A DNA stretch of 48,905 bases from Pseudobdellovibrionaceae bacterium (GCA_044359815.1 JBIKLL010000015.1:1-48905), one strand, 5' to 3'. Numbered from the stretch's first letter, positions 520 to 13,694 are shown. Made by a program: numbers and translations. The notes: a model not told the origin generated them from the letters alone.

Positions 520-677
520 CTCATAACCCGAAGTTGTGCCGGCGGCAAAATGTGACTGTGACTTTGCCTGTGGCACATTTTGATGACGAGCATGGAACGA
601 AGGCAAAAGGGCTTGGCCCTTTTGCAGCAGTGACGTCGGCGGCTCGCCGACTGGTTCAAATCCTGCCCCCGCAACCA
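520..677 (+). pseudogene. 3' fragment of tRNA-fMet(CAT) interrupted by a ~119-nt structured insert (repeat copy 1)
   Basis: CTCATAACCCGAAG (520-533) and GGTTCAAATCCTGCCCCCGCAACCA (653-677) match the anticodon arm and T-arm/acceptor/CCA end of bacterial initiator tRNA. The 5' half is absent. The insert 534-652 has hairpins at 546-582, 603-625 and 635-651. Confidence 0.85.
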
Positions 678-703
678 ATTTCGAACCTAGAGAAATTGGC
701 TAA

Positions 704-1111
704 GTGATCGAAGCAAATAAGAAAATTAAAACTGAAAGCGGTGCTCCGTGGGAAAAGGTTGTCGGTTACTGCCGAGCTATTCGTATGGGAAATATCATCG
801 CCGTTACAGGAACAGCCTCAGTTTCAGATGATGGAAGAATCTTTGCCGTTGGCAAGCCATACGAACAAGCAAAGCGATGTCTTGAGATCATTGAAAAGGC
901 CATTCAACCACTTGGAGCAATTCGAGAGGACATTATCCGCACTCGTATCTTTGTAACTGACATTAGCAAGTGGCAAGAGTTCGGTCGGGCTCATGGCGAG
1001 TTTTTTGTGAATCATCCTCCCGCAACAAGCATGATTGAGGTTAAGTCCTTAATTGATCCCGACATGCTTATTGAGATTGAAGCCGATGCCATTATTGGTG
1101 AGAGAATCTAG
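704..1111 (+). CDS. RidA/YjgF/YER057c/UK114 family protein
   Basis: SGAPWE..VGY.RA, GRAHGEFF, PATSMIEV and LIEIEADA motifs. Confidence 0.9.
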   Translation: MIEANKKIKTESGAPWEKVVGYCRAIRMGNIIAVTGTASVSDDGRIFAVGKPYEQAKRCLEIIEKAIQPLGAIREDIIRTRIFVTDISKWQEFGRAHGEFFVNHPPATSMIEVKSLIDPDMLIEIEADAIIGERI

Positions 1112-1125
1112 CAATGGGTCACACC

Positions 1126-1366
1126 CTTCTAGCCCCTGATATACGTTGGACACATTTACTACGTCGACTAGGCGTGGTACTAAACCAAGAAAAAGGTGTT
1201 CAAAATGAAGAGTTTCACGGTTGAATTTAAAGACCAAATTGTTAAAGAGGTTCAAGAGGTCGGCAATATTAGTTTAGTTTGTCGAAAGCACAACTTAAGA
1301 ACCAGCACTGTTCATACGTGGTTTCATAAATTTTCGAGTAGATTCTCTATCGTCAACTTTCAGTGA
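1126..1366 (+). mobile_element. Truncated IS3-family remnant (OrfA HTH fragment at 1205-1366 plus probable left end)
   Basis: Hand translation of 1205-1366: [43 protein letters not shown]..., a typical transposase OrfA helix-turn-helix. Upstream GCCCC...GTTGGACAC resembles IS3-type IR ends. No DDE OrfB is present. Confidence 0.65.
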
Positions 1367-1549
1367 CATTCTCACTTCAAAATCTTGACTCCACAAAACC
1401 ATAGGGAGTTCATTGGCCTCGCCATCTATTAAATGATGTGAGCAATTCGGATTTGCAAGACTTTTATGTCTGACTCGAATGGCCTTGAGAGTCACCTCAA
1501 AGCCCGATGCCTTTCGAAAAGCTGAAGGTGCATTTACAAGTAAATTCAT
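1295..1549 (-). CDS. Hypothetical protein, possibly truncated by the IS3 remnant
   Basis: ATGA overlap with the COG0523 stop codon suggests translational coupling. The 3' end runs into the IS remnant. Confidence 0.35.
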
Positions 1550-2772
1550 AGAGAGATTTGCCGACTCTCGAGATCATTCATCAATTGCCATTTGGGAAGT
1601 GGGTCCTTTAACTTCTTCCACGCGGGAACACCCTGCAAATCTTCTTCATCCGTTAATAAGCAAGAATCCAGCAAATTTTTATCAGCCTCTTTATCTAAAT
1701 TTTGACCGATAAAAACCAACTCTTGGCCTCTATCACCGTAAACCTCATCCCAATCTTTTTTAATAATATCGAGATCTTCTTTTACGGTAGGCCAATCTTC
1801 TTGAGGCGAAGCCGCATACCAGCGCCCCACACACTCTAGTGTTACAACTTGGCCTGCCTGCGACCACAGCCCAATATAATTCGGGCGAGTAGCGATCCAA
1901 AATAAGCCCTTAACTCGTAAAAATCGCTTCCCTTCTTTTAAAAGAAAGTTCCAAAGACGTTCTGGATGAAAAGGTTTTCTCGCCCGATAAACAAAGCTGC
2001 TGACACCATATTCTTCGGTTTCAGGCCTTTCTTCACCGCGCAAAACAGCCATCCAGCCGGGTGCCTCGTGGGCTTTTTCAAAATTAAAAAGGCCCGTGTT
2101 TAAAATAGCTTGGAGCGGCACTCTCGATTGAATGGATTCAATGACCTTGGCGGTTGAATTGAGTGACGTTAAAATCGCCTTCAGGGTTTCTTTTTCTTCA
2201 GCTGTGATGAGATCAATTTTATTCAGCACAATCACATCGGCAAACTCAACCTGTTCGATTAAAAGGTCTGTGATTGTTCGCTCATCATCTTTTCCCAACT
2301 CAAGATGACGTGATTTTAGACTTTTTGACGCTTTGTAATCTTGTAAAAAATTCTTCGCATCAACAACTGTAACCATAGTGTCCAGCCGGGCAACGTCAGA
2401 AAGGCTTTTGCCACTTTCTTCAGTAAACGTGAAAGTCTCTGCCACTGGCATAGGCTCTGAGATGCCCGTCGACTCAATCAATAAGTAATCAAATCTCTTT
2501 TCTTTGGCTAAACGCGAAACCTCGGCCAGCAGATCTTCACGTAGGGTGCAGCAAATACAACCGTTACTCATCTCAACAAGTTTTTCTTCAGTTCGACTTA
2601 AAGCAGAGCCACCGTTTTTAACTAACTTTTCGTCAATATTGACTTCTGACATGTCGTTGACAATCACGGCGACTTTTAAACCTTCTCGATTGTTTAAAAC
2701 ATGATTCAAAAGTGTCGTCTTTCCAGCACCTAAAAAGCCAGAAAGTACAGTGACTGGTAATTTTTGCTTCAT
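1546..2772 (-). CDS. COG0523 (CobW/ZigA/YciC-type) zinc metallochaperone GTPase
   Basis: GFLGAGKTT Walker A, GCICC motif, IESTG, NKID and C-terminal CobW_C ([20 protein letters not shown]). Zur-regulated context. Confidence 0.95.
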
Positions 2773-2852
2773 TGACTGCTCCTCCAGGTTGAATCTTTAC
2801 ATATATGTAAAGCAATTGAGAAAAGCAGTATATATGACGAAAAGATTGCAAA

Positions 2853-2867
2853 TGCAACTAGGTTGCA
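2853..2867. promoter_or_regulatory. Putative Zur box between the divergent COG0523 gene and zinc-uptake operon
   Basis: Perfect palindrome TGCAAC-TAG-GTTGCA. The same TGCAA-N5-TTGCA core occurs upstream of the Fur-family gene (8107-8121). Confidence 0.75.
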
Positions 2868-2911
2868 CTACATGTATTCCCAGATTACATAACGAACTAT
2901 TAGAGGTATAT

Positions 2912-3535
2912 ATGAAAAATATTTTAACGATGATGTTGTCACTGACTTTGATTTATTCGTTCTCGGCTAACGCCCACGGCGACCACCCAAAGAATCTTAA
3001 TCTTGCGAAATCACCCACCATTTTAGCTGGCTTTGAAGCCGCCGCAGTGTTTGCGAAAAGCTTTAAAGAAGCTAATGGAAAGAAAATTACAAACGAATTG
3101 ATCGGAATTCATTCACAGGCTGCAAACGATGAAGTCTTGGTAGGCGTATACAATGTGCTATCGCAAAGTCAGGCCGCAAAAGACTTATACGGATGTCATT
3201 TTCACAACGATAAAAATGGTAAAATCGAGAGCACGCACTGCCACTTTGAAGAAAAAATAACTTTTGAATATTTTGCTTCGCCTAAAAGCTATTCAATCGA
3301 AGAGTATGCAATTAGCGCCAATAGCGCTATTGAACTCTTCGAATCTCGAGGCGGTAACCCTGCCACAATTGATAAAGCTAAAATTTGGAAAGCAGGCGAC
3401 GATATTCAAATTTCATTTAAATGGACTGGAGAAAACAACAATGCAAAAGTAGCCTACTTTATGTGTCACTACCACGGTAACCATATAGATTGCCATCGCC
3501 AAAGTCGACCCGGCCCCAATGAGCCACAGGATTAA
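2912..3535 (+). CDS. Secreted His/Cys-rich putative zinc-binding protein
   Basis: Start reassigned to ATG 2912 (GAGG RBS, signal peptide ending ANA-HGDH). Duplicated motif YGCHFH...HCH and FMCHYHGNHIDCH. Confidence 0.75.
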   Translation: MKNILTMMLSLTLIYSFSANAHGDHPKNLNLAKSPTILAGFEAAAVFAKSFKEANGKKITNELIGIHSQAANDEVLVGVYNVLSQSQAAKDLYGCHFHNDKNGKIESTHCHFEEKITFEYFASPKSYSIEEYAISANSAIELFESRGGNPATIDKAKIWKAGDDIQISFKWTGENNNAKVAYFMCHYHGNHIDCHRQSRPGPNEPQD

Positions 3536-3538
3536 TTT

Positions 3539-4174
3539 ATGGTTAATTGTTTGATGTTACGCGCACTTTTGACTCTTTTTTGCACTTTTGCTCTTATCGC
3601 TTGCGGTGGGGGCAGAAATCCTGACCTTGATGCCGCAAAACAAATCCCGGCTTCACAAAAAATAGGCAGTCAAAAAGCGGAAGTATTAATCGGAGAAGAC
3701 ACCCTAGTTTTTACTAACGGTACGCTTGAGGGCTCTGGCGTCGTGCGTTTTGCTTCGCCACTCGACAAGACGGAATCAGCAAACAACTTTACAATTCAGA
3801 TCGAGCTTGCCGAGAACTCTTCTGTCACGCTGGTGGCAAATTCGAATCGCAACCTAGCGGCTGGTGTAGAAATTGAGATTTCTCGGCCAGCGGGTTCGAC
3901 TTCGCCTCATGTGATCGCGCGCACAAGCCAAGATTCTCTGGATATCAGTACTAGCTTCTCTAACGTTGATGTCACAAGTGCAATGCATCTGTCCTTTGAT
4001 ATTCACAATGATCACGGAAATTCTTTGCATTTTTTGGCATGGAACGAGCAAACAGGTGAAGAGCTATTAAGCGATATCTTGAGCGGTCGCGGATTCGGCG
4101 CCAACTGGGGGCTAAAGTTACAAACAGCAAAAATAACCGGTATTGTAAAAAACGGACCCAAGGATAAACACTGA
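3539..4174 (+). CDS. Hypothetical lipoprotein in the zinc operon
   Basis: Lipobox LIAC, beta-rich body, HNDH..LH motif. TGATG overlap with the next gene. Confidence 0.75.
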   Translation: MVNCLMLRALLTLFCTFALIACGGGRNPDLDAAKQIPASQKIGSQKAEVLIGEDTLVFTNGTLEGSGVVRFASPLDKTESANNFTIQIELAENSSVTLVANSNRNLAAGVEIEISRPAGSTSPHVIARTSQDSLDISTSFSNVDVTSAMHLSFDIHNDHGNSLHFLAWNEQTGEELLSDILSGRGFGANWGLKLQTAKITGIVKNGPKDKH

Positions 4175-5247
4175 TGTTGATTTTAGTTTCTTTTCTACTT
4201 TTATCAACTACCGGCAATGCGCAATCGCTTTTACAAAATTTAAATGTTGCAGCTGCTGTTGATATTGTTGCGCCCACGTCATTTGACGAATCAGAAGACA
4301 ACAAGGTTGGCGTGCGATCAGCCGAACTTATGTTCTACGCTCCGATTGATCATATCTTTGACGGTGTTTTAAATGTTGCGGGTCATGATGATGAAGGAGA
4401 ATTTCACTTTGAGCTTCATGAAGGCTATATAGGGTCATCAAAGCTGATTCCACAATCGCGATTTCGTATCGGAAAGTTTTTCTTAAATGTAGGTAGATTA
4501 AATACATTTCATCAACATGACTGGCCATTCATTGCAGCACCCAAAGTTCACCGCGAGTTTTTTAATCCTGGTGCCCATTCTGCTATCGAAGCCGAAGGTG
4601 CGGCTGATACAGGCATCGAATATTCTTGGATTTTGCCCACGGATAGATACTTTGACATCACTGTCGGCGTCACTAACGGCTACTGCTTCGGACATTGCCA
4701 CGATGAAGGCGAGCGACCGCCCTACCCACTTCACTATATTCATCCCACGACATTTTTTGACTGGGGCACCGGCCGCGGTATACTGCTAGGCGCATCTTAT
4801 CTGGGAAGAAAAGATTCTTCGGATGTTAAAACTGATCTCTTTGGCATTGATCTCACCTATAAAAATCGCGAAGGCCGAAAGCTGAAATGGCTTGTGCAAA
4901 GCGAGGTGTATTATCAGATGCAGTCCGCCCCAGCTATGGAGACTTCAAAAAAAGCAGGTCTCTATATCTACCCCCAATACGGCATCAATGAAAACATCAG
5001 CTTTGGCGTTCGACTTGATGGTTTTTCTCATTTGAATTTGGAGTTTCAATCGAATGGCGAATCTCGCGAAGACTTTGATTATGCTTTTGCACCGACACTC
5101 ACTTATAAACCGAGTGAGTTCTCTGCGCTTCGCTTGGCTTATAGTCACGAAGTTGACACCACCCAAGGCGTAAGCGACGTCACTGATCGCCAGATTCAAA
5201 TGCAGTTTCTTTTTATTTTGGGCGCGCACCCAGCTCACGAGTTTTGA
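4174..5247 (+). CDS. Zinc-regulated outer-membrane beta-barrel/porin
   Basis: Signal peptide, amphipathic beta-strands, RLN.FHQHDWPF motif, and PSEFS..R and C-terminal LGAHPAHEF typical of outer-membrane proteins encoded beside metal ABC transporters. Confidence 0.75.
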   Translation: MLILVSFLLLSTTGNAQSLLQNLNVAAAVDIVAPTSFDESEDNKVGVRSAELMFYAPIDHIFDGVLNVAGHDDEGEFHFELHEGYIGSSKLIPQSRFRIGKFFLNVGRLNTFHQHDWPFIAAPKVHREFFNPGAHSAIEAEGAADTGIEYSWILPTDRYFDITVGVTNGYCFGHCHDEGERPPYPLHYIHPTTFFDWGTGRGILLGASYLGRKDSSDVKTDLFGIDLTYKNREGRKLKWLVQSEVYYQMQSAPAMETSKKAGLYIYPQYGINENISFGVRLDGFSHLNLEFQSNGESREDFDYAFAPTLTYKPSEFSALRLAYSHEVDTTQGVSDVTDRQIQMQFLFILGAHPAHEF

Positions 5248-5255
5248 GGTAAAAT

Positions 5256-6167
5256 ATGAGAATATTTATAAAAACACTTTTTATTATCATGGTCGCGGCC
5301 ACACCAGCTGATGCCAGTGCCCGCCTCAAGGTTATCACGACTCTTCCTGATTTAGCTGAAGCCGCGCGTGTCATCGGTGGCGACCATGCCGAAGTGGATT
5401 CACTTCTAGAAGGCACAGAGGATGCCCACTTCTTAGATGCCGTGCCAACTTTTATTCGAAAAGTGGCTAACGCTGATATCGTTTGTGTCATCGGACTTGA
5501 GCTTGAGGTTGGATGGATGCCAAAAATACTTTCAAAATCGGCCAATTCCAAAGTGCAGCCCGGCGGCATTGGCTACTGCGAAACAGGATCATTTATCAAT
5601 GCCCTTGATAAAGCGACGGGCCCTGTGGATCGTTCAATGGGTGACGTACATCCCGCCGGTAATCCGCATTTTACACTCGATCCCAAGACTCTTGCTGTAG
5701 GCGCAAGAGGCATTCTCGAAGCTCTTGTGCGCGCAAAACCAGATGCCAGTGAAACATTTCATTCAAACTACAGAAGCTTACAAGAACAAATGAGCTCACT
5801 ACACTCGGCAATTGATAACAAATTAAAACCCTTACAAAACACAAATCAACTTGCTTTTGTCGAATACCACAAAGACTTCACTTACTTTTTTAATAGTTAT
5901 AATTTAAAGTCTCTTGGTGCCATTGAAGAAAAGCCTGGTGTTCCACCTTCAGCCGCACGTCTTGCCATTTTTTCTAAAACAGCAAAAACCAACCAGGTTC
6001 GTATGGCACTTGGAGCACTCCACAGCCCAGAAAAACATCTCCGCCGCTTTTCTGAACTCAGTGGCATTCCTTTTAAAAAGCTCCCGACTATGGTTCAACC
6101 CAAAAATAAGAATCTCGACTCGATTGAAAAAGTCCAGCACTTTATCGCTGATTCAATTCTCAAATGA
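5256..6167 (+). CDS. znuA: Zn/Mn ABC transporter substrate-binding protein (ZnuA/TroA-like)
   Basis: LKVITT, DAHF, GLELE.GW, GDVHPAGNPHF, YH..F.YF and EEKPG.PP motifs. Confidence 0.88.
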   Translation: MRIFIKTLFIIMVAATPADASARLKVITTLPDLAEAARVIGGDHAEVDSLLEGTEDAHFLDAVPTFIRKVANADIVCVIGLELEVGWMPKILSKSANSKVQPGGIGYCETGSFINALDKATGPVDRSMGDVHPAGNPHFTLDPKTLAVGARGILEALVRAKPDASETFHSNYRSLQEQMSSLHSAIDNKLKPLQNTNQLAFVEYHKDFTYFFNSYNLKSLGAIEEKPGVPPSAARLAIFSKTAKTNQVRMALGALHSPEKHLRRFSELSGIPFKKLPTMVQPKNKNLDSIEKVQHFIADSILK

Positions 6168-6763
6168 ACCCAAGCCTTCAACTCAACGATGTAGCGGCTT
6201 TCACACCAGATGGGCGTCGGCTTTTTGAAGACATAAATTTTGAATTATCGCCTGGTCAAATTTTGATGATCGAAGGCGCCAATGGCTCTGGCAAAACCAC
6301 TCTGGTAAAAGTGATTTTAGGCCTTCACCCCTATTATCAGGGCATTGTTAAGAACGATTTTTCTGAGACCACCTATCTACCGCAGATTGGCAACGTGCAG
6401 TTTTTTTTACCACTCACCGTATTAGACGTGATTCAACTGCAAGCACCTCACGCAAATGAAGAATCAGTTTTAAATCTTGGTTTACTTACAGATAAAAATT
6501 CACTATCTCGGCCATGGAACACCGCCAGCGGTGGCGAAAGACAAAAGTCTCTTCTTACACGGGCCTTTTTAAGGTTTGGTCACATCCTCGTTCTCGATGA
6601 GCCGTTTAATCATCTTGATAAGGTGGCCCGGCATCAACTCGTTGATTTAATCCTGAAGAAAAAATATGAAGAGTGTGCTGTGCTTTTGATTTCTCACGAA
6701 CAAATCACTGAGTTTAAAGATTTTAAAAAAATTTCTATTCCTGCACATAGTAGCTACACATGA
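6164..6763 (+). CDS. znuC: Metal ABC transporter ATP-binding protein (ZnuC-like)
   Basis: GANGSGKTT, SGGERQK, LVLDEP and SH switch. Confidence 0.88.
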   Translation: MNPSLQLNDVAAFTPDGRRLFEDINFELSPGQILMIEGANGSGKTTLVKVILGLHPYYQGIVKNDFSETTYLPQIGNVQFFLPLTVLDVIQLQAPHANEESVLNLGLLTDKNSLSRPWNTASGGERQKSLLTRAFLRFGHILVLDEPFNHLDKVARHQLVDLILKKKYEECAVLLISHEQITEFKDFKKISIPAHSSYT

Positions 6764-7602
6764 TTTTACTTCTTGAAGCCTATAAATGGACCATTCTCGG
6801 CGGGATTTTAGGCGGCGCCGCGCTTTCGCTGATTGGCAGTCAACTGGCCAGCCGCAATCAGTCTGTCCAAACGTTGGTGGTCAGCCAAGCGGCTGCCATG
6901 GGCACCGTGATCGGGCTGGCACTGACTGTTCTTTTCAGATCACAAAAATTTCATCTCGAAGAAAGTAGCATCATACCATTGATAACAAGTTTTATCTCAG
7001 CACTCTTGTTTTACACTTTATGTGAAACTTTAATTTCCTACAAATGGCCTTCTCGCAATACCTACTATGTAGGTATTTTTGGCCTCTTGATGGCCGTTAC
7101 ATATAGCATAATATCCTTAGTACCGGGTCTAGAAACACATATGGCAGCCTCTTATTTTGGTGATCTAGCTTTAGCCAGCAATTCAGACTCTATCATCATG
7201 GCAGCAATTGGACTAATTGCAATTTTCTTCTTTAAATTTACTTGGCGACAAGTGACCGCTTGGTCGTTTGATACAGTGATTTTTGGGATTCAATCGCAAA
7301 GAAAATCTGATCGCACTTTGCAAGTTATTTTTGTTTCAGTTTCTCTTGTGACTATTGCTGCCAGTATTCAACTTTTAGGTTTTTTATTTACAGTGTCCTG
7401 CCTATTTCTACCTGCGATGATTCTGACAAGAACTCAAAAAAGACTGAGAGGGCTTAAAGCAAGGCTTGTTTCAGGTAGCGCCTTAGGTGTCGCGCTTGGA
7501 TTCATATTGTCGCTTTGGCACGGGCAGCTACCAACAGTACCCGCAATTGGAATCTGCCTGCTTTTCACTTCACTTTCGATGGGAATTCGGCGGGCACGAT
7601 AG
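6760..7602 (+). CDS. znuB: Metal ABC transporter permease (ZnuB/ABC-3-like)
   Basis: Multi-TM protein with YFGD and LPA motifs, coupled to the ATPase gene. Confidence 0.82.
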   Translation: MILLLEAYKWTILGGILGGAALSLIGSQLASRNQSVQTLVVSQAAAMGTVIGLALTVLFRSQKFHLEESSIIPLITSFISALLFYTLCETLISYKWPSRNTYYVGIFGLLMAVTYSIISLVPGLETHMAASYFGDLALASNSDSIIMAAIGLIAIFFFKFTWRQVTAWSFDTVIFGIQSQRKSDRTLQVIFVSVSLVTIAASIQLLGFLFTVSCLFLPAMILTRTQKRLRGLKARLVSGSALGVALGFILSLWHGQLPTVPAIGICLLFTSLSMGIRRAR

Positions 7603-7611
7603 TCTCAAGTT

Positions 7612-8055
7612 TCAGTACGTACATCCAGTACAAACCCCACGAAGAAAAATTGGCTGCTTTTTACCAAAGAAACGAAAGTCACCAAGTGCCGCCATAAAAT
7701 CGCGAATCCGGCTATGATCTTTTATTTCTTGATGGCGATGGCATTTTTGACAAAAAAGTAAAAGGTGGGCGTGGCTTTCACATTCGTGTGAGCAAAAAAC
7801 ATAACTGTTGGAATCGACTTCGTGTAAAACTCCAGCCTGTTTTAAATTGGCCAAATTGCGGTAAATAGAAACGCGGTCAACAACCTCAATATCTTTTGAA
7901 ATAGCTGCAATGAGGTCCGCTTGACTCAAGGCCAACTTAGCTTCTGCAAAAGCCAGCAATATACGACGACGTAATGGTGTTTTTTTTAAAGAGTGTTTTT
8001 CCAATACCTCATCGATACGCAGAAGCTCTTTTTTTCTTTGTGCTGACTGAACCAT
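7612..8055 (-). CDS. zur: Fur-family regulator, probable Zur
   Basis: T..R..IL, VSIYRNL..L...G, HAHLL..CQKC and C-terminal CTGC. Adjacent to the zinc ABC operon. Confidence 0.85.
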   Translation of the reverse strand: MVQSAQRKKELLRIDEVLEKHSLKKTPLRRRILLAFAEAKLALSQADLIAAISKDIEVVDRVSIYRNLANLKQAGVLHEVDSNSYVFCSHECESHAHLLLFCQKCHRHQEIKDHSRIRDFMAALGDFRFFGKKQPIFLRGVCTGCTY

Positions 8056-8102
8056 CCTCGTAATCTCCTAAAATCAGGCCCTATTATAAACCATGATTTC
8101 GA

Positions 8103-8125
8103 TAGATGCAATAATGTTGCATCTA
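8103..8125. promoter_or_regulatory. Putative autoregulatory Zur box
   Basis: TAGATGCAA-TAATG-TTGCATCTA, a 9-bp-arm palindrome ~50 bp upstream of the zur start. Confidence 0.75.
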
Positions 8126-8300
8126 CTCACTCAGCTTGGTATTCATAGGCTATAACGATGGCTTCGCCAGTTTTCTACACCAAATAGCGTTTTGTCTTTT
8201 AATTTCAATATGTTGGAAGGTCCACGATATATATAGGCATGGGATTGCGTTTTTCTACGCGAACTCATAGTTTAGAAAAGAACATCAGGCGCGCAACAGT

Positions 8301-8313
8301 CCCCCGCAACCAA
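8301..8313 (+). repeat. tRNA-fMet 3'-end duplication (att-like core), identical to 666-678
   Basis: CCCCCGCAACCAA occurs at both 666-678 and 8301-8313. Confidence 0.75.
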
Positions 8314-8432
8314 CTCCTAAAATAACTTATGACTTTGTTGAACTTCGGCGGCGCTTCCTTGCGACGTGGCGGTAACCACGCCTCAGTCGCTTGCCTCGTT
8401 CGCCTCGTCATAAGCTATTTTAGGAGTTGGTT
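8308..8432. mobile_element. 125-bp MITE-like element with 26-bp terminal inverted repeats
   Basis: AACCAACTCCTAAAATAACTTATGAC (8308-8333) vs GTCATAAGCTATTTTAGGAGTTGGTT (8407-8432), one mismatch. GC-rich internal hairpin GCGAC-GTGG...CCAC...GTCGC. Confidence 0.75.
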
Positions 8433-8484
8433 CTTGCTGAGGGTTGTTTTGAATCTTTGTGCTTGGGGTTTTTGTCGGAGCCCC

Positions 8485-8629
8485 GCTCATAACCCGAAGT
8501 TGTGCCGGCGGCAAAATGTGACTGTGACTTTGCCTGTGGCACATTTTGATGACGAGCATGGAACGAAGGCGAAAGGGCTTGGCCCTTTTGCCTGAGAGAC
8601 GTCGGCGAAACGCCGACTGGTTCTAATCC
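8485..8629 (+). repeat. tRNA-fMet fragment plus three-hairpin insert (copy 2)
   Basis: 8486-8570 is identical to 520-604 (85 nt). The remainder differs in loop and linker positions and ends GGTTCTAATCC, without the acceptor end. Confidence 0.92.
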
Positions 8630-8661
8630 CACAAAAAGACAGAAAAATATTTGGCTTTAGT

Positions 8662-8696
8662 AAAAAAAAAAAGGCCGCACTTTATGCGACCTTTTT
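8662..8696. terminator. Rho-independent terminator
   Basis: A-tract, GGCCGCA/TGCGACC stem and T-tract, downstream of the minus-strand gene ending at 8731. Confidence 0.65.
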
Positions 8697-8730
8697 CATC
8701 TGTTGTCGAATTTAATATGGAATTTAGTTT

Positions 8731-9648
8731 CTAATTTGCATTTACAGTACAAGCTTCAGCGGCAACGTCAAAACTTTTTTCTTGTGCCAGAAGATCGTCA
8801 ATGCACTTTGATTTCAATTTTACTCTATCTGCTCCACCTGTTAAACATGCTTGACTCGCAAGAAGTCCCAACTGTACCGCATCTTCTTCATCCACGCTTT
8901 TACGCATCTCTGGTGAATTAGTAATCTCACTAATGTATAAAATGTTTTTCGAAACACTTTTAATGCAAGCAGGTAGCTTATTCAGCTCTACTGCTATTTC
9001 ATTTGAAATTTTCTGTTTTTTAACGCTGTTACGTACTTTATAAGTTCCATTTAAGTCCAAAGCTTCAAGGACTCCAAACCTATTACTGATAAATATATTG
9101 TTAATCGAGCTGGATCCATCAGGATCACAAATCTTCTGCCTTGCAAGCCGAATAATCTCTAGATGAAACTCAAGACCACCCGACTTCGAATAAGGCAAGA
9201 CAGGATAGATTTTAGTTTTTTCTTCTGACCACACAATACCTTTTACGTTTACTTTGGCTGAAAAGGTTGTACTACCTAGTACATTCAAACAATCAACTAC
9301 CTTAGAATTATAAAATCTAGCAAAACTGCGAAGATTTTCAGAGGTACTACAAAGCACTATCGGTGAATACACTTGAATCTTGTTATGAAGTTCAGGATCC
9401 GTTTCGCGATATTGATTTAAATCAATAAATTTGTTTAAGTTTCTTGTACAAGACAAGACTTCCGTCACTCTTTCGATGTCATATGCATTTTGTGCACAGA
9501 CCAGAGCAGCAGATTCTACCGAACGACCTAGTCCATTATTATCCTTCATAGTCGAGAATTTTTGAATACATTCTGCTTTTTGTTTGGCTGATTGCGCGAA
9601 ACTCAATTGCGCAGCTAAAGTAAACCCAATTATTAAAATCAATTTCAC
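8731..9648 (-). CDS. Hypothetical secreted Cys-containing protein
   Basis: Long ORF. Likely GTG start at 9648 after an AAGGAG RBS, with a signal peptide ending SFA. Confidence 0.75.
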   Translation of the reverse strand: MKLILIIGFTLAAQLSFAQSAKQKAECIQKFSTMKDNNGLGRSVESAALVCAQNAYDIERVTEVLSCTRNLNKFIDLNQYRETDPELHNKIQVYSPIVLCSTSENLRSFARFYNSKVVDCLNVLGSTTFSAKVNVKGIVWSEEKTKIYPVLPYSKSGGLEFHLEIIRLARQKICDPDGSSSINNIFISNRFGVLEALDLNGTYKVRNSVKKQKISNEIAVELNKLPACIKSVSKNILYISEITNSPEMRKSVDEEDAVQLGLLASQACLTGGADRVKLKSKCIDDLLAQEKSFDVAAEACTVNAN

Positions 9649-9751
9649 AAAAAAACTCCTTTTTAGATTAGTGGCGAAATTTACTATGCAATCAGATGCC
9701 AGCCATATTTTAATCAATAGTTGTCTAAAAAAGATTCGAACTTTAATAAAA

Positions 9752-9775
9752 AAGGTAAGGTAAGGTAAGGTAAGG
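9752..9775. repeat. Pentanucleotide microsatellite (AAGGT)4 AAGG
   Basis: Read directly from the sequence. Confidence 0.85.
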
Positions 9776-9889
9776 CTTTTTTAATAATCCGACTAATAAA
9801 TCTGCACCCTGACTAAAAACGGCACCTAATCAACCCCTCAGTTCTGCATATTTTAACTAAATGGCAGACGAACCGTCTATCAGGGAAAC

Positions 9890-9972
9890 CCCGAAGTTGT
9901 GCCGGCGGCAAAATGTGCCAGTGGCACATTTTGATGACGAGCATGGAACGAAGGCTACAAAAAACCTGGCTC
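9890..9972 (+). repeat. 5' part of the tRNA-fragment/hairpin element (copy 3)
   Basis: CCCGAAGTTGTGCCGGCGGCAAAATGTGCCAGTGGCACATTTTGATGACGAGCATGGAACGAAGGC matches copies 1 and 2 with a shorter hairpin-1 loop, then ends at TGGCTC. Confidence 0.88.
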
Positions 9973-10023
9973 CCGCGCTAGCGATATAAGTAATCAAACA
10001 AACTACTTTGCAACTTTCCAAAT

Positions 10024-10797
10024 TTATTGTGCGACCCAACCGCCATCAACAGCCATTGAATGACCCGTGATAAACGAAGCTCCGTCTGAACATAGCCAAA
10101 GAGCGGCCTCTGCAATTTCAGCTGGTTGACCAACTCTACCGATGGGTTCACCTTCAACAAGTTGTTTTCTGATTTGAGCTTCCCCGTGAACAAATCGATC
10201 GATCATAGGTGTTTCTATAACTCCGGGACAAACTGCATTCACTCGAATATTGGACTTCGCACATTCGAGAGCCGCCGTTTTTGTCAGACCAATGACCCCG
10301 TGTTTACTTGCGACATAAGCGGGAATTCCAGGAAATCCGATCAGTCCTGCGATGGACGAACAATTGACAATAGCACCATGTCCTTGTTTTAGCATTTGGG
10401 GAATCTGGTACTTCATGCAGAGCCAAACGCCCTTCAAATTGGTATTGATAACCCGATCCCAGTTTTCCTCCGAGCAATCCACGGTAAAGGCTTGCTCGCC
10501 TTCGACGCCAGCGTTGTTGAAGGCATAGTCCAGACCTCCAAAGCGTTTGACCGTATCCTGGATTGCGGTTTTGACTTCAGCACTACTAGAAATATCGCAT
10601 TTTATAAAATGAGCTCTCCCTCCGGCTTCTTGAACCATATGGGCTGTTTGAGCGCCCGCATCAGCATTTACGTCTACAACGACTACCTGAGCTTTATTTC
10701 TTCCGAAAGCCAAAGCTGTTGCGCGACCAATACCCGTCGCAGCCCCAGTAATAAAAGCAACTTTCTGAGCAAAGTTGTACGTAGCTTGATTCTCCAT
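10024..10797 (-). CDS. Classical short-chain dehydrogenase/reductase (SDR)
   Basis: TGAATGIG, NNAG, YVASK, VNAVCPG and VDGG motifs. Confidence 0.95.
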   Translation of the reverse strand: MENQATYNFAQKVAFITGAATGIGRATALAFGRNKAQVVVVDVNADAGAQTAHMVQEAGGRAHFIKCDISSSAEVKTAIQDTVKRFGGLDYAFNNAGVEGEQAFTVDCSEENWDRVINTNLKGVWLCMKYQIPQMLKQGHGAIVNCSSIAGLIGFPGIPAYVASKHGVIGLTKTAALECAKSNIRVNAVCPGVIETPMIDRFVHGEAQIRKQLVEGEPIGRVGQPAEIAEAALWLCSDGASFITGHSMAVDGGWVAQ

Positions 10798-11056
10798 ATT
10801 TTCCTCCGTTATTGTATGACAATGAGTGGTGCAGGCACCCTTTTCATCATCGTGATAGTTTCAATTTTAGACAAAAATCCCGGTGGGCTACGATAGGCCA
10901 AGACCAGTAAGTCGTAAACAAGATATTTCTAATTAGGATATCTTAAGAAATTTTTAACCTAGTGAACCGAATAATTAAACCCATCACTTCAATTATTTTC
11001 TTTTTACAACTATTTGACAGACACTTTTTAACTTCCTAGCCTATTAATCTAAAAAA

Positions 11057-11671
11057 ATGGGAGCAATTATGAATATGTTAATTTTATTTGTGTCTGTATT
11101 TGGATATCAATTCACTTTTGCAAATGTTCAATTGCTGGCGCTAAATCCTGATTCAATAGAACAACTAGCAAGTCCACTTTCAAATGATAGTGTTTATGGA
11201 AATTTGGAGAATTTATACAAAACCGGGACATCAGCTAGCGAGCAAACTACGAGCGGATGGTGGACTGGAAGGTGCTATTATTCTGGCAGTCGATCAGTTG
11301 CTCGAAATTCACTACTTGTTGGTGAGAAAAGACGTGATTCAAACAATGACGGTCCGATTAATCCACCAAAAGATAAATTTAAATTGATTAGCGTTTTTGC
11401 TGAATACGAAGCCCCTGATGCTTTTGATAATATTTCAGAGGGATTTCGCCGTGAAATAAGTAGCTTTATAGACAGCACATTCCCCTCGATAGGCGAAGCA
11501 AGGCACACGGAAAACAGCTTTGCTAGCGACAATTTGAACGCTAAAGTTCAATACAGAATCAGAATTTCAGGGAACTACCTCGTCAACAAAGTTGTAATAA
11601 CAGAAAATCAAGATAGCTTTAAAGCTGGAGATACTTTTGGCTACTGCTATTACTTTAAAAAAGTTCAATAG
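11057..11671 (+). CDS. Hypothetical secreted protein
   Basis: 204-aa ORF with signal peptide, GWWTGRC motif and C-terminal YCYYF. Confidence 0.75.
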   Translation: MGAIMNMLILFVSVFGYQFTFANVQLLALNPDSIEQLASPLSNDSVYGNLENLYKTGTSASEQTTSGWWTGRCYYSGSRSVARNSLLVGEKRRDSNNDGPINPPKDKFKLISVFAEYEAPDAFDNISEGFRREISSFIDSTFPSIGEARHTENSFASDNLNAKVQYRIRISGNYLVNKVVITENQDSFKAGDTFGYCYYFKKVQ

Positions 11672-11746
11672 GCTTGCAGTGATTTTTTAAATTAAAAATA
11701 ACCGCTTTGATTTAAACAAAACAGACTTCATAATAAGGGGGAAAAA

Positions 11747-12025
11747 ATGAAATTCTTAATAGCAGTGCTATTGCTTTTAAATACGGTATCCGCATTTGGT
11801 ACTAACTGCAGAGTATTTGATAATAATCCACAAAGTTGTATTGCAAATGATTGCTTGATTGCAACAATCGGAAAATGCACCCCCACAGCAAACAGCTCTT
11901 ATCCTGACAGATGCAATGATACAAAGTATGATGAGTTCACTTGTCGACATTATGCTGACTTTGGCTGGTGCAAATGGTCTGTGGAAGAGAGCTATTGTCT
12001 AGACAGAAAGATCTGCAAACAGTAA
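11747..12025 (+). CDS. Small secreted Cys-rich protein
   Basis: AAGGGGG RBS, signal peptide MKFLIAVLLLLNTVSAFG and 9 Cys in the mature part. Confidence 0.75.
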   Translation: MKFLIAVLLLLNTVSAFGTNCRVFDNNPQSCIANDCLIATIGKCTPTANSSYPDRCNDTKYDEFTCRHYADFGWCKWSVEESYCLDRKICKQ

Positions 12026-12029
12026 TAAA

Positions 12030-12053
12030 TGGCTCGCCGACTGGTTCGAATCC
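12030..12053 (+). repeat. 3' part of the tRNA-fragment/hairpin element (copy 4)
   Basis: TGGCTCGCCGACTGGTTCGAATCC matches 641-663 of copy 1 (hairpin-3 loop and right arm plus tRNA T-loop). Confidence 0.8.
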
Positions 12054-12089
12054 ACTTGAACTCTTTAATTGGTAAGTTAACATTTTATC

Positions 12090-13169
12090 ATGAAATTTTG
12101 CCTGATTCTTTTAATAGTATTTGTCAGTTCTTGCGCTACTCATAAAGTCCAAAATTCTGTGATTGATTGCCGGTTGCAATACGCCAATGAAGACGTGCTA
12201 GAACAATTGGATTCTTTTTCGGAATTATTTCAGCAAAAATGTTTTAATGAAGCAATTCAATTGGGAAAGCAAATTCGCAAAAACTACCGGGATAAATATT
12301 TTTCGGTCACAAAAGAAATCGGTGAAGTTTTCGTGGGGGAAGGCGCTTTCAATGACTATACCCTTGAATCCTATGAAAGATCCTATTTGTCGTACCTGAT
12401 GGCCATTGGATATTTGAATTTAGGTGAAATTGAAAATGCGAAAATTGAGCTCAGAAAATCAGCCGAAGAAAATTCTGCAGTGCTTTACAATTATGGGGAT
12501 GACCCTGTAATCCTGGTTTTACAGGCAACTCTTTGGGAAAAATTAAATCATCCTGCCGAAGCCAGGCCTTTTTGGCGAAAAGCTTTTGAACATCCAAACG
12601 CTGAGCCTTCTTTAAAAAGCTTTTGTAAAACCCAGATTGACCGTATCGATAGGAAAGAAAAAGTGAACTGGAAAATCCGGGGTGTTTCTGACTTTCCACC
12701 GATCGATTGGGAAATCTCAGGCAAAAAAATGAACGAATCCTATTACAGCATTTATGCAAAAAATGAATTTCCCCAAGTTTGTAAAAGCAATGACAGTTTA
12801 GTCATCAACACAGAAACTTGGATGAACAAAATTAAAATCCGACATTTTTATGACTACCACCCTGTTTTAAATGTGAAAACTTGGACTCGAATGCCTGTGG
12901 GTTTGGCTTATGGTGCAGGATTATTTGCCAGCGGTGTGGCTGTAACTGTGGGCACTTGTTTTGCGGCGGCCTATGCACATGCCAGTAACCTGTGCCAATA
13001 TTCCCACAAAGCCGGTAGCTATTTTGTAAATAAATCTGAAGAAGTCTTTCAATACACCGTAGCCCCTGATCTAAGACACTGGAAGCGAGTGCCCGCAGGG
13101 TTTTACCTATCAAGCCAAGCAAACTCTAAAGAATGTGACAAATACGGTGTTGTGACCGATATTTTTTGA
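12090..13169 (+). CDS. Lipoprotein with helical TPR-like region (COG3014-like)
   Basis: Lipobox VSSC and Y..ESYE...L.Y..A..YL..G..E.A.IE.R pattern. Confidence 0.65.
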   Translation: MKFCLILLIVFVSSCATHKVQNSVIDCRLQYANEDVLEQLDSFSELFQQKCFNEAIQLGKQIRKNYRDKYFSVTKEIGEVFVGEGAFNDYTLESYERSYLSYLMAIGYLNLGEIENAKIELRKSAEENSAVLYNYGDDPVILVLQATLWEKLNHPAEARPFWRKAFEHPNAEPSLKSFCKTQIDRIDRKEKVNWKIRGVSDFPPIDWEISGKKMNESYYSIYAKNEFPQVCKSNDSLVINTETWMNKIKIRHFYDYHPVLNVKTWTRMPVGLAYGAGLFASGVAVTVGTCFAAAYAHASNLCQYSHKAGSYFVNKSEEVFQYTVAPDLRHWKRVPAGFYLSSQANSKECDKYGVVTDIF

Positions 13170-13280
13170 TTTACAGAAGACCATTTTAATACCCTGATCC
13201 GAAATGAAAATCTCATTTATGCGTGAAAAACAAAAATAACAGACCTTAAACAGATCAAGGTATTTATAAAAATCAAGAAC

Positions 13281-13694
13281 CTATTTTTTATTGCTTACAC
13301 ATTTGTAATTTACATTCGCGCCAATCAAACCAGTACTGGCTGCTTTAAACAAAACCGTTGCTGTCTTTAGGTCTGCATTTACCAGAATGATTGCATCTTC
13401 ATTCGCACAGGAAACTGGGTAGAATTTTGCGTTACCAATCCTGGCTACATCGCCTAATGCGCATTCAAATTTATTGTCTAAACCTTCAATGGAAACATTG
13501 GCGACCATGGTGCCATCGTCATTAATATTTTCAGATTTTCTGTCAGTGCTAAACTGAATCAAAAATACCGGCATCACACCGTCACCTGGTTGCGCCAAAA
13601 CATTTGCAGAACATTTAAGGTCAGCCTTTACCACTGTCGCTGCCTGGGCTACTGAAAAACCGATCAAACCAAAAATCACTAATAATGCTTTCAT
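13281..13694 (-). CDS. Hypothetical secreted protein
   Basis: GGAGG RBS, signal peptide ending AQA and 4 Cys. Confidence 0.8.
   Translation of the reverse strand: MKALLVIFGLIGFSVAQAATVVKADLKCSANVLAQPGDGVMPVFLIQFSTDRKSENINDDGTMVANVSIEGLDNKFECALGDVARIGNAKFYPVSCANEDAIILVNADLKTATVLFKAASTGLIGANVNYKCVSNKK

Follow-up and report, generated by a model that had tools for sequence, protein, structure and literature searches.

Three-hairpin repeat units behind tRNA genes of a Pseudobdellovibrionaceae bacterium: a candidate family of gene-less, tRNA-tailored elements at an apparent accretion island

Folded single strands serve as recombination sites in two known systems, the attC sites of integrons and the attP site of the CTX phage. 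Islands at tRNA genes are textbook matter, and two described kinds are close to the locus reported here. Cis-mobilizable elements (CIMEs), as PMC5704250 describes them, keep their att sites, have lost their recombination genes and take part in accretion at tRNA genes. The tycheposons of Prochlorococcus are described in 10.1101/2020.12.28.424599 as cargo islands seeded at the tmRNA gene and a small number of tRNA genes. Here we analyze a stretch of 48,905 nucleotides (the window) from a Pseudobdellovibrionaceae bacterium (GCA_044359815.1, JBIKLL010000015.1:1-48905), in which a non-coding unit, made of parts of tRNA-fMet split by an insert with three hairpins, separates blocks of unrelated genes between positions 520 and 12,053. 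We propose, with a probability of roughly one half (0.5), that such units belong to small gene-less elements tailored to individual tRNA genes, and that islands have accreted at the tRNA-like ends of these elements through recombination in trans.

The unit consists of CTCATAACCCGAAG, a 119-nt three-hairpin insert and GGTTCNAATCC, and a repeat search of the window gave four copies or part-copies that are 83-94% alike. U1 (520-678, plus strand) is a full unit that comprises tRNA-fMet positions 32-45, the insert and the T-loop to ACCA; CTCATAACCCGAAG lies at 520-533, the insert at 534-652 and GGTTCAAATCC at 653-663, and TGCCCCCGCAACCA extends to 677. U2 (8486-8629, plus strand) ends at GGTTCTAATCC and has lost the acceptor end; the identity between 520-663 and 8486-8629 is 94% over 144 nt. 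U3 (9890-9955, plus strand) is the 5' part of the unit, from CCCGAAG through hairpin 1 to ..GAACGAAGGC (94-98% over 34-40-nt blocks), and U4 (12031-12053, plus strand) is the 3' part, half of hairpin 3 with GGTTCGAATCC (96% over 23 nt). An earlier note on this DNA, made from the sequence alone, had located the repeats correctly, except that the first base of copy 2 is 8486 and its acceptor end is missing, and that copy 3 begins with CCCGAAG, without CTCATAA, and ends at 9955 instead of 9972. Its claim of a repeated unit is also borne out by BLAST of copy 1 against the whole assembly (2.95 Mb, 125 contigs, 91% complete), in which only one further full copy lies outside the window, on contig C30 (C30:5081-4935, 89% over 159 nt).

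Once the insert is removed, copy 1 has the exact letters of two stretches of the C30 tRNA-fMet gene, one reaching from the anticodon loop to position 45, the other from the T-loop to ACCA. The insert of the fMet copies stands between tRNA positions 45 and 52, and the repeated fragment is thus not colinear with the tRNA. The 13-nt tRNA end CCCCCGCAACCAA is present at 666-678 and again at 8301-8313 (two exact matches, 0 expected by chance at this stringency). Folded as single-stranded DNA, 8433-8640 reaches -44.7 kcal/mol (z -5.68, 0/200 shuffles as good) with the three hairpins in the fold. ARAGORN called no tRNA in the window, and no Rfam family matched it at gathering score. A group I/II or archaeal-type tRNA intron was considered and rejected, given that there is no model match, that the copies are without the tRNA 5' half and that the real tRNA-fMet is colinear. 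Contigs of four other lake-water runs cross the junctions with 0 differences (185-682, 7499-8515, 8541-9892 and 11595-13312), so the repeat copies are not the assembly artefact that the earlier note had allowed for.

An intact, colinear tRNA-fMet, which had been expected somewhere to the left of the window, is found at C30 c[5279-5355]. Behind it, on the same strand, come a long palindrome (H), with a 5' arm that begins within the AACCA end of the tRNA, an antisense copy, in degenerate form, of the 3' half of the tRNA, and the full unit. Window 8301-8629 repeats these three parts with only the last 13 nt of the tRNA before them: the tRNA-fMet 3' end with H (8301-8432, plus strand), whose 26-nt arms beginning AACCAA enclose the core ..TTCCTTGCGACGT-hairpin-ACGCCTCAGTCGC..; the antisense copy of tRNA-fMet positions 39-74, degenerate by sequence comparison, with a spacer (8433-8485, plus strand); and U2. 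In the window antisense copy 24 of the 36 positions match a perfect antisense without gaps, a score reached by 1/2000 shuffles. Neither the antisense copy nor the long palindrome just upstream of U2 (8301-8485) figured in the earlier note.

What the locus looks like without its blocks is seen in a near relative. A metagenome scan for the fMet unit returned a single contig, L143, which is 91% identical to C30:6383-4950 and carries, in order, an intact tRNA-fMet, H with exactly the arms found in the window, the antisense copy, one uninterrupted unit and the window sequence from 12054 onward (93% over 12035-12092, unit and flank). C30 and the window are joined by this synteny, not by the assembly, and it places tRNA-fMet to the left of H-U2 and of the 12054 flank. 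Since the L143 arrangement is uninterrupted, the DNA between the window copies is insertion: block A (679-8300), block B (8630-9889) and block C (9956-12030) are all absent from L143. The DNA that appears inserted relative to L143 comprises everything from the tRNA to 8300 (block A and no less than 4.9 kb of C30, where genes for FIST and histidine-kinase proteins and fragments of IS91-family transposases lie) and 8630-12030 (B, U3 and C); judged by synteny, the window is an apparent accretion island at tRNA-fMet. The unit had been taken in the earlier note for a marker of recombination junctions between blocks of varying cargo, and both points stand: the blocks are insertions against L143, and behind the end of U1 (682-685) five continuations besides that of the window, one of them that of C30, occur in four lake-water runs. 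A joint of 8406 to 520 in run X5 was set aside, because it is supported by a single short contig that reaches 44 letters to one side.

The junctions fall into three classes. The first is the anticodon loop, at the left edges of U1, where it adjoins unrelated DNA, and of U3. The second is the edge of T-loop and T-stem, U2 and U4 both ending in ..AATCC, and the third is the acceptor end, represented by the 13-nt repeat at 666-678 and 8301-8313 that bounds block A. Williams (2002) is reported to have named these three places as the sublocations within tRNA genes that serve integrase families. Unit repeats flank blocks B and C. U3 is 98% identical to the unit of L143; the 3' part of U2 (..GAAACGCCGACTGGTTCTAATCC) differs from that unit, whereas U4 and the conserved chromosomal flank to which it is joined match it, a contrast that points to at least one exchange inside the unit.

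The unit had been thought specific to tRNA-Met, a view that did not survive a reading of the 3' flanks of all 34 tRNA and tmRNA genes of the assembly: it belongs to a genome-wide family tailored to many tRNAs and to tmRNA. About 13 of the 34 genes share one 3' layout, in which tRNA-CCA is followed by a palindrome (5' arm starting in the tRNA end), an antisense copy of positions ~76 to 54, a spacer, the T-stem 5' strand of the same tRNA with TTCRA, an insert of 79-168 nt and positions 59-76. Where the loop of the palindrome is short, the structure is a plain two-way terminator; otherwise the loop contains one of two conserved cores. A copy of the last 16 nt (two mismatches at most) lies 130-330 nt downstream of 11 of the 34 genes, and Cys and Glu have more diverged copies of the tRNA end. 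The T-stem halves beside each insert are those of the local tRNA. In most tRNAs the insert occupies T-loop position 58/59; in fMet, whose insert is a divergent member of the family (E 0.009 to the insert profile), it occupies 45/46.

The inserts are homologous (alignment A1) and read RRCAAAAA-stem-loop-stem-TTTTTG, a CCCC..GGGG-type hairpin, a third hairpin and ..CGARNC, with stems that vary between copies yet stay paired. RNAalifold on the MAFFT alignment of the inserts gave 6 pairs only, because hairpin 3 is misaligned; hairpins 2 and 3 were read by eye. In every case the insert comes after GTTCR(A) of the T-loop and stops 6-10 nt past hairpin 3, with variable 3' terminal letters; the unit as a whole has long tRNA repeats on both sides. 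The insert profile has 19 matches in the genome, all of which stand at tRNA flanks of this layout except two tandem copies on C99 and the copies on C75, a short contig. Most members of the family, in this and in other genomes, carry no cargo. The C99 pair (C99:71440-71671) stands behind a terminator and an antisense-tRNA-like stretch, with no tRNA gene nearby. Directly behind tRNA-Asn (C4), Arg-TCG (C21), Leu-TAA (C27) and Asp (C38) lies the second conserved palindrome core, ..CCTCAGACAGCGGTGCTCGGCG.., within very long arms (up to ~45 nt) and inverted in the Asn copy.

A search for the fMet unit in 384 genomes of the order yielded, apart from matches that for the most part cover the 26-nt tRNA end only, the unit together with its antisense copy in at least nine relatives from six families (G048, G263, G024, G280, G228, G225, G226, G215 and G043). 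In these relatives the antisense copy complements tRNA positions 41-72 almost perfectly. Across 15 copies of the fMet insert, pairing in hairpin 1 amounts to 96%, with compensatory change in 5 of 11 pairs and a covariation score that 0/500 shuffles reach. The units stand in tandem in G228. G280 (L147, G280:C1, 1186-1340) holds a mirror image of the usual 3'-part copies: the 5' half of tRNA-fMet (1-45) is fused directly to the insert, with the intact tRNA-fMet ~50 nt further downstream. Two of these relatives, G048 and G024, carry a Phage_integrase gene (363 or 378 aa) that ends ~100 nt before AATCCTGCCCCCGCAACCA, which is followed by a hairpin, the antisense copy and the unit.

A covariance model of the T-loop inserts (R1) was run on 61 genomes, this one and 60 relatives. 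It found such inserts in 14 of the 61, with 14 copies here and 1-7 in each of 13 relatives from eight families. Fourteen of the 27 relative matches examined lie less than 600 nt behind a tRNA or tmRNA gene on the same strand, and several of the remaining ones still end in a tRNA-like 3' part. Two species of a related genus differ in the presence of a unit: in G008 a 173-nt unit (terminator, decayed antisense copy, sense positions 45-58 and insert) stands between tRNA-Pro and an 18-nt repeat of positions 59-76, and in G072 tRNA-Pro is joined directly to the same flank. Identical units occur in tandem in G051, and in G058 and G050 the repeat extends through the terminator.

Our preferred explanation takes up the anatomy of the unit, the family, the insertions relative to the empty relative, the presence or absence of units at repeats, the tandem arrays and the conserved hairpins. 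On this view the tRNA-fMet gene has a small gene-less element at its 3' end, and the unit is the tRNA-like end of that element. A complete element runs from tRNA-CCA through a palindrome of terminator type, in whose loop the H core may lie, an antisense copy and a spacer to a sense copy that is split by the three-hairpin module, and then to the tRNA 3' end once more. Such an element is bounded by direct repeats of the tRNA 3' end, like an integrated circle, and always leaves the real tRNA intact. Its anticodon loop, T-loop edge and acceptor end may then serve as extra attachment sites, into which successive islands would recombine, splitting or duplicating the unit. The order U1, block A, H-U2, block B, U3, block C and U4 that is seen downstream of tRNA-fMet would be the outcome. 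Movement would be by site-specific recombination in trans, the only way in which any enzyme could act here and the one the earlier note had envisaged; tyrosine integrases of larger elements are the most likely agents, with the insert probably forming an arm of the attachment site.

Several observations weigh against this explanation. One conserved insert family for a dozen tRNA targets ill fits integrase sites that are specified by protein; the insert lies within the presumptive core of a T-loop attachment site; and the antisense tRNA copy is without a role in classical integrase models. There is no integrase in the window, on C30 or beside any unit of this genome. It is because these four features misfit a plain integrase model that we put the probability no higher. 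Moreover, the difference between G008 and G072 could be a deletion between the repeats instead of an insertion, and no excised circle was seen.

The enzymes that the genome does offer were surveyed. The assembly holds two tyrosine recombinases, both with XerC/XerD as best match, both below the equivalog cut-offs and neither near the array; on integron models they score 123.5 and 80.2 bits against a cut-off of 265. No match to a reverse transcriptase (RVT_1) or to TnpB was found in the genome. Priming of a retroelement on the antisense copy was rejected for the lack of RVT_1 and because the antisense arm also covers genomic flank past CCA. Nine Y1_Tnp matches are made up of one RAYT-like gene and eight copies of a ~206-aa protein. 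The RAYT-like gene (C8:9501-10136) lies between inverted copies of a repetitive extragenic palindrome (REP), GAGACCGTACGAC. The ~206-aa gene, an HUH gene with a weak Y1_Tnp match, is found at C23:201-821, C48:48177-48797, C56:2969-3616, C47:11964-12584, C49:93331-93951, C100:633-1253, C125:2378-2998 and C8:23373-24056; conservation among its copies extends only from ~70 nt upstream of the start as far as the stop codon, and each copy is preceded by a different microsatellite-like tandem array. Both were rejected as mobilizers of the units, their flanks being microsatellites or a different REP without H or insert hairpins. IS91-family Y2_Tnp fragments lie at C30:182-830, C95:12213-12431 and C120:22038-22202. 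The first is at a contig end between tRNA-fMet and the window, on the strand of the tRNA, which agrees with the suggestion of the earlier note that an HUH gene might be found to the left; the second is at a contig end 4 kb behind the tRNA-Cys unit, again on the strand of the tRNA. No HUH transposase with element ends that match the units was found, the Y2 copies being contig-end fragments that do not show their termini.

These genes bear on the alternative that survives best, insertion of a folded single strand guided by its hairpins and carried out by an HUH (Y1/Y2) or Xer-type enzyme, which we regard as rather unlikely but worth setting out. The antisense and sense tRNA copies would pair as a mimic of the duplex target, the three-hairpin module would form the branch, one strand would be joined at a fixed T-loop position after GTTCRA, and the palindromic arms would arise by fold-back copying; the target would then be programmable by the element sequence, in the manner of CTX-phage, integron attC, IS200/IS605 or IS91 insertion. 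The order sense-antisense-sense is what one can derive from the CTX model for an integrated folded hairpin site. The insert has a fixed position and no target duplication of its own, its hairpins are subterminal, the last of them ~8-10 nt from the 3' end, and the T-loop contains GTTC, the IS91 target. One insert family serves many tRNAs, and the antisense copy, near-perfect in some relatives and decayed here, looks as if it were required only at insertion. The genome lacks a dedicated integrase and has the two Xer-like genes, the nine Y1_Tnp matches and the IS91-family fragments, two of which, at the C30 and C95 ends, are a few kb downstream of units linked to tRNA genes. The same idea has to face the fact that the Y1-like and RAYT-like genes have no H- or insert-like ends, that the Y2 genes are truncated at contig ends, that no full-length element was found in which such ends enclose a transposase, that the 3' terminal letters of the insert vary and that two relatives, G048 and G024, have integrase genes at the fMet site.

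In its boldest form this alternative would make the units widespread, so far undescribed mini mobile elements that choose their target by their own sequence and are inserted as single-stranded DNA by an HUH or Xer-like enzyme, a proposition we consider improbable. The further step, in which insertion at the fixed T-loop position re-creates the tRNA end and the tRNA-like ends then capture cargo islands, is speculative to the same degree, and the chance that the mini-elements form a new class is small but real.

A clearly less probable alternative is that the host keeps the units as a structured RNA or DNA module of its tRNA loci, either a terminator and insulator complex or a small RNA with an antisense and sense helix resembling the acceptor and T-arm, and that island insertion is incidental. 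The compensatory changes in the hairpins, the form of hairpin 1 (A-tract, stem, T-tract, as in a two-way terminator), the recurrence of the fMet module in at least nine relatives from six families of the order and hairpin loops that are often AGGA or ATGA are all what such a module might show. Its distribution is patchy (13/60 relatives), however, units form tandem arrays and differ in presence between species, the antisense part has decayed here, no Rfam family matches, and the plain terminators upstream would block read-through from the tRNA. As for the integron-like cassette capture put forward in the earlier note, in which a dedicated recombinase would stack promoterless cassettes with an attC-like folded site at tRNA-Met, the strong structure of the unit, the close abutment of unrelated genes that it separates and the differing block content among relatives do not save it, and it is largely refuted by recombinase scores far under the integron integrase cut-off, by blocks whose gene number ranges from one to about nine, with both strands used and a regulator of their own, by a unit that is not a simple imperfect palindrome of attC type and by the cargo-free state of most family members in this and other genomes.

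Palindrome H deserves separate mention. Its core (..TCCYTGCGACGT-hairpin-ACGCCTCAGTCGC.., window 8334-8406) recurs as an intergenic palindrome of 130-150 nt in Nitrospira (many loci), Acidobacteriota, Thermoanaerobaculia, Actinomycetota, Bacteriovoracales and others, not beside tRNAs. ARAGORN found no tRNA at 54 loci with the extended H motif, within up to 900 nt on each side (300 nt or less at some). Rfam gave nothing relevant at E up to 1 on eight loci with H and units. The idea that the H core is a tRNA-specific part was dropped after a pattern scan placed the same core between genes in Nitrospira, Acidobacteriota, Actinomycetota and others. Elsewhere the core has variable, paired, terminator-like arms and no Rfam match, and because these arms resemble terminator stems H seems to be a separate element that resides in terminator loops.

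The cargo of the window is varied. Block A has genes on both strands, nine or so in all, including a zinc-uptake set: Pfam matches are to RidA, a CobW-type GTPase, ZnuA, an ABC ATPase, an ABC-3 permease and a Fur-family regulator, a porin-like protein has a Pfam match below the cut-off, and two further open reading frames (ORFs) have no Pfam match. Block B holds a 328-aa ORF on the minus strand with no Pfam match, and block C a short-chain dehydrogenase (minus strand) and ORFs of 204 and 92 aa, likewise without Pfam match; genes of blocks B and C are on mixed strands. The close spacing of genes and repeats that the earlier note had pointed out is real, with the RidA ORF starting at 704 and the 92-aa ORF ending at 12025. 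To the left of U1, a palindrome with 35-nt arms that are 97% complementary and a 5-nt loop (140-214) lies between U1 and a minus-strand ORF that continues off the start of the contig, and a promoter-like site, TTGATA-16 nt-TATATT (462-489, 10/12 matches), lies 30 nt 5' of U1. A promoter and terminator scan of the region gave site counts not above shuffled expectation and did not call hairpin 1.

Under our preferred explanation, which is also the conservative one, the flexible blocks behind tRNA-fMet (zinc uptake, RidA, dehydrogenase and secreted proteins) in this lake-water predator lineage would be accounted for without a resident integrase, as would the assembly breaks there and the way in which pseudo-tRNA fragments can mislead annotation. 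What would be new is that the att-like repeats come from a tiny, structured, gene-less family with an antisense copy of the target, tailored to a dozen tRNAs and tmRNA and spread across a bacterial order. Should the units' own sequence turn out to carry the information by which they move, they would represent a new type of site-specific mobile DNA and possibly a programmable insertion tool.

A word search of the open-access literature found no description of such units, and they can be set beside four known systems. Integron attC and CTX attP share with the units a strongly structured site, antisense and sense copies that could pair, a branch or bulge at the putative exchange point and a setting in which the only recombinases are Xer-like, and they differ in that the target here is a tRNA gene instead of attI or dif, that no IntI is present and that the single-strand intermediate is hypothetical. 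IS200/IS605-derived and IS91-family elements and their miniature forms seem similar in their subterminal hairpins and in a fixed short target without duplication, and HUH genes are present in the genome, two of them downstream of tRNA-linked units; in contrast to them, no HUH gene with matching ends was found here, and such elements are not known to make long tRNA-derived repeats like those of the units. With the accretion of CIMEs and of islands that bring their own integrase, as laid out in PMC5704250, the locus has in common the intact proximal tRNA, direct repeats of the tRNA 3' part around blocks, and elements that retain att sites without recombination genes. By comparison with that account, the repeat here is not colinear and has a conserved three-hairpin insert and an antisense copy, the units measure 150-340 nt, one homologous family serves many tRNAs, and no cognate integrase is present in this genome. 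Tycheposons, as described in 10.1101/2020.12.28.424599, have tRNA-specific tyrosine recombinases of their own and plain ~40-nt partial tRNAs, with no structured insert or inverted copy described there. They nevertheless resemble the present locus in that adjacent elements are separated by a partial tRNA copy only, in the remnants and partial tRNAs scattered through the islands and in a variability that peaks beside the tRNA (10.1101/2020.12.28.424599).

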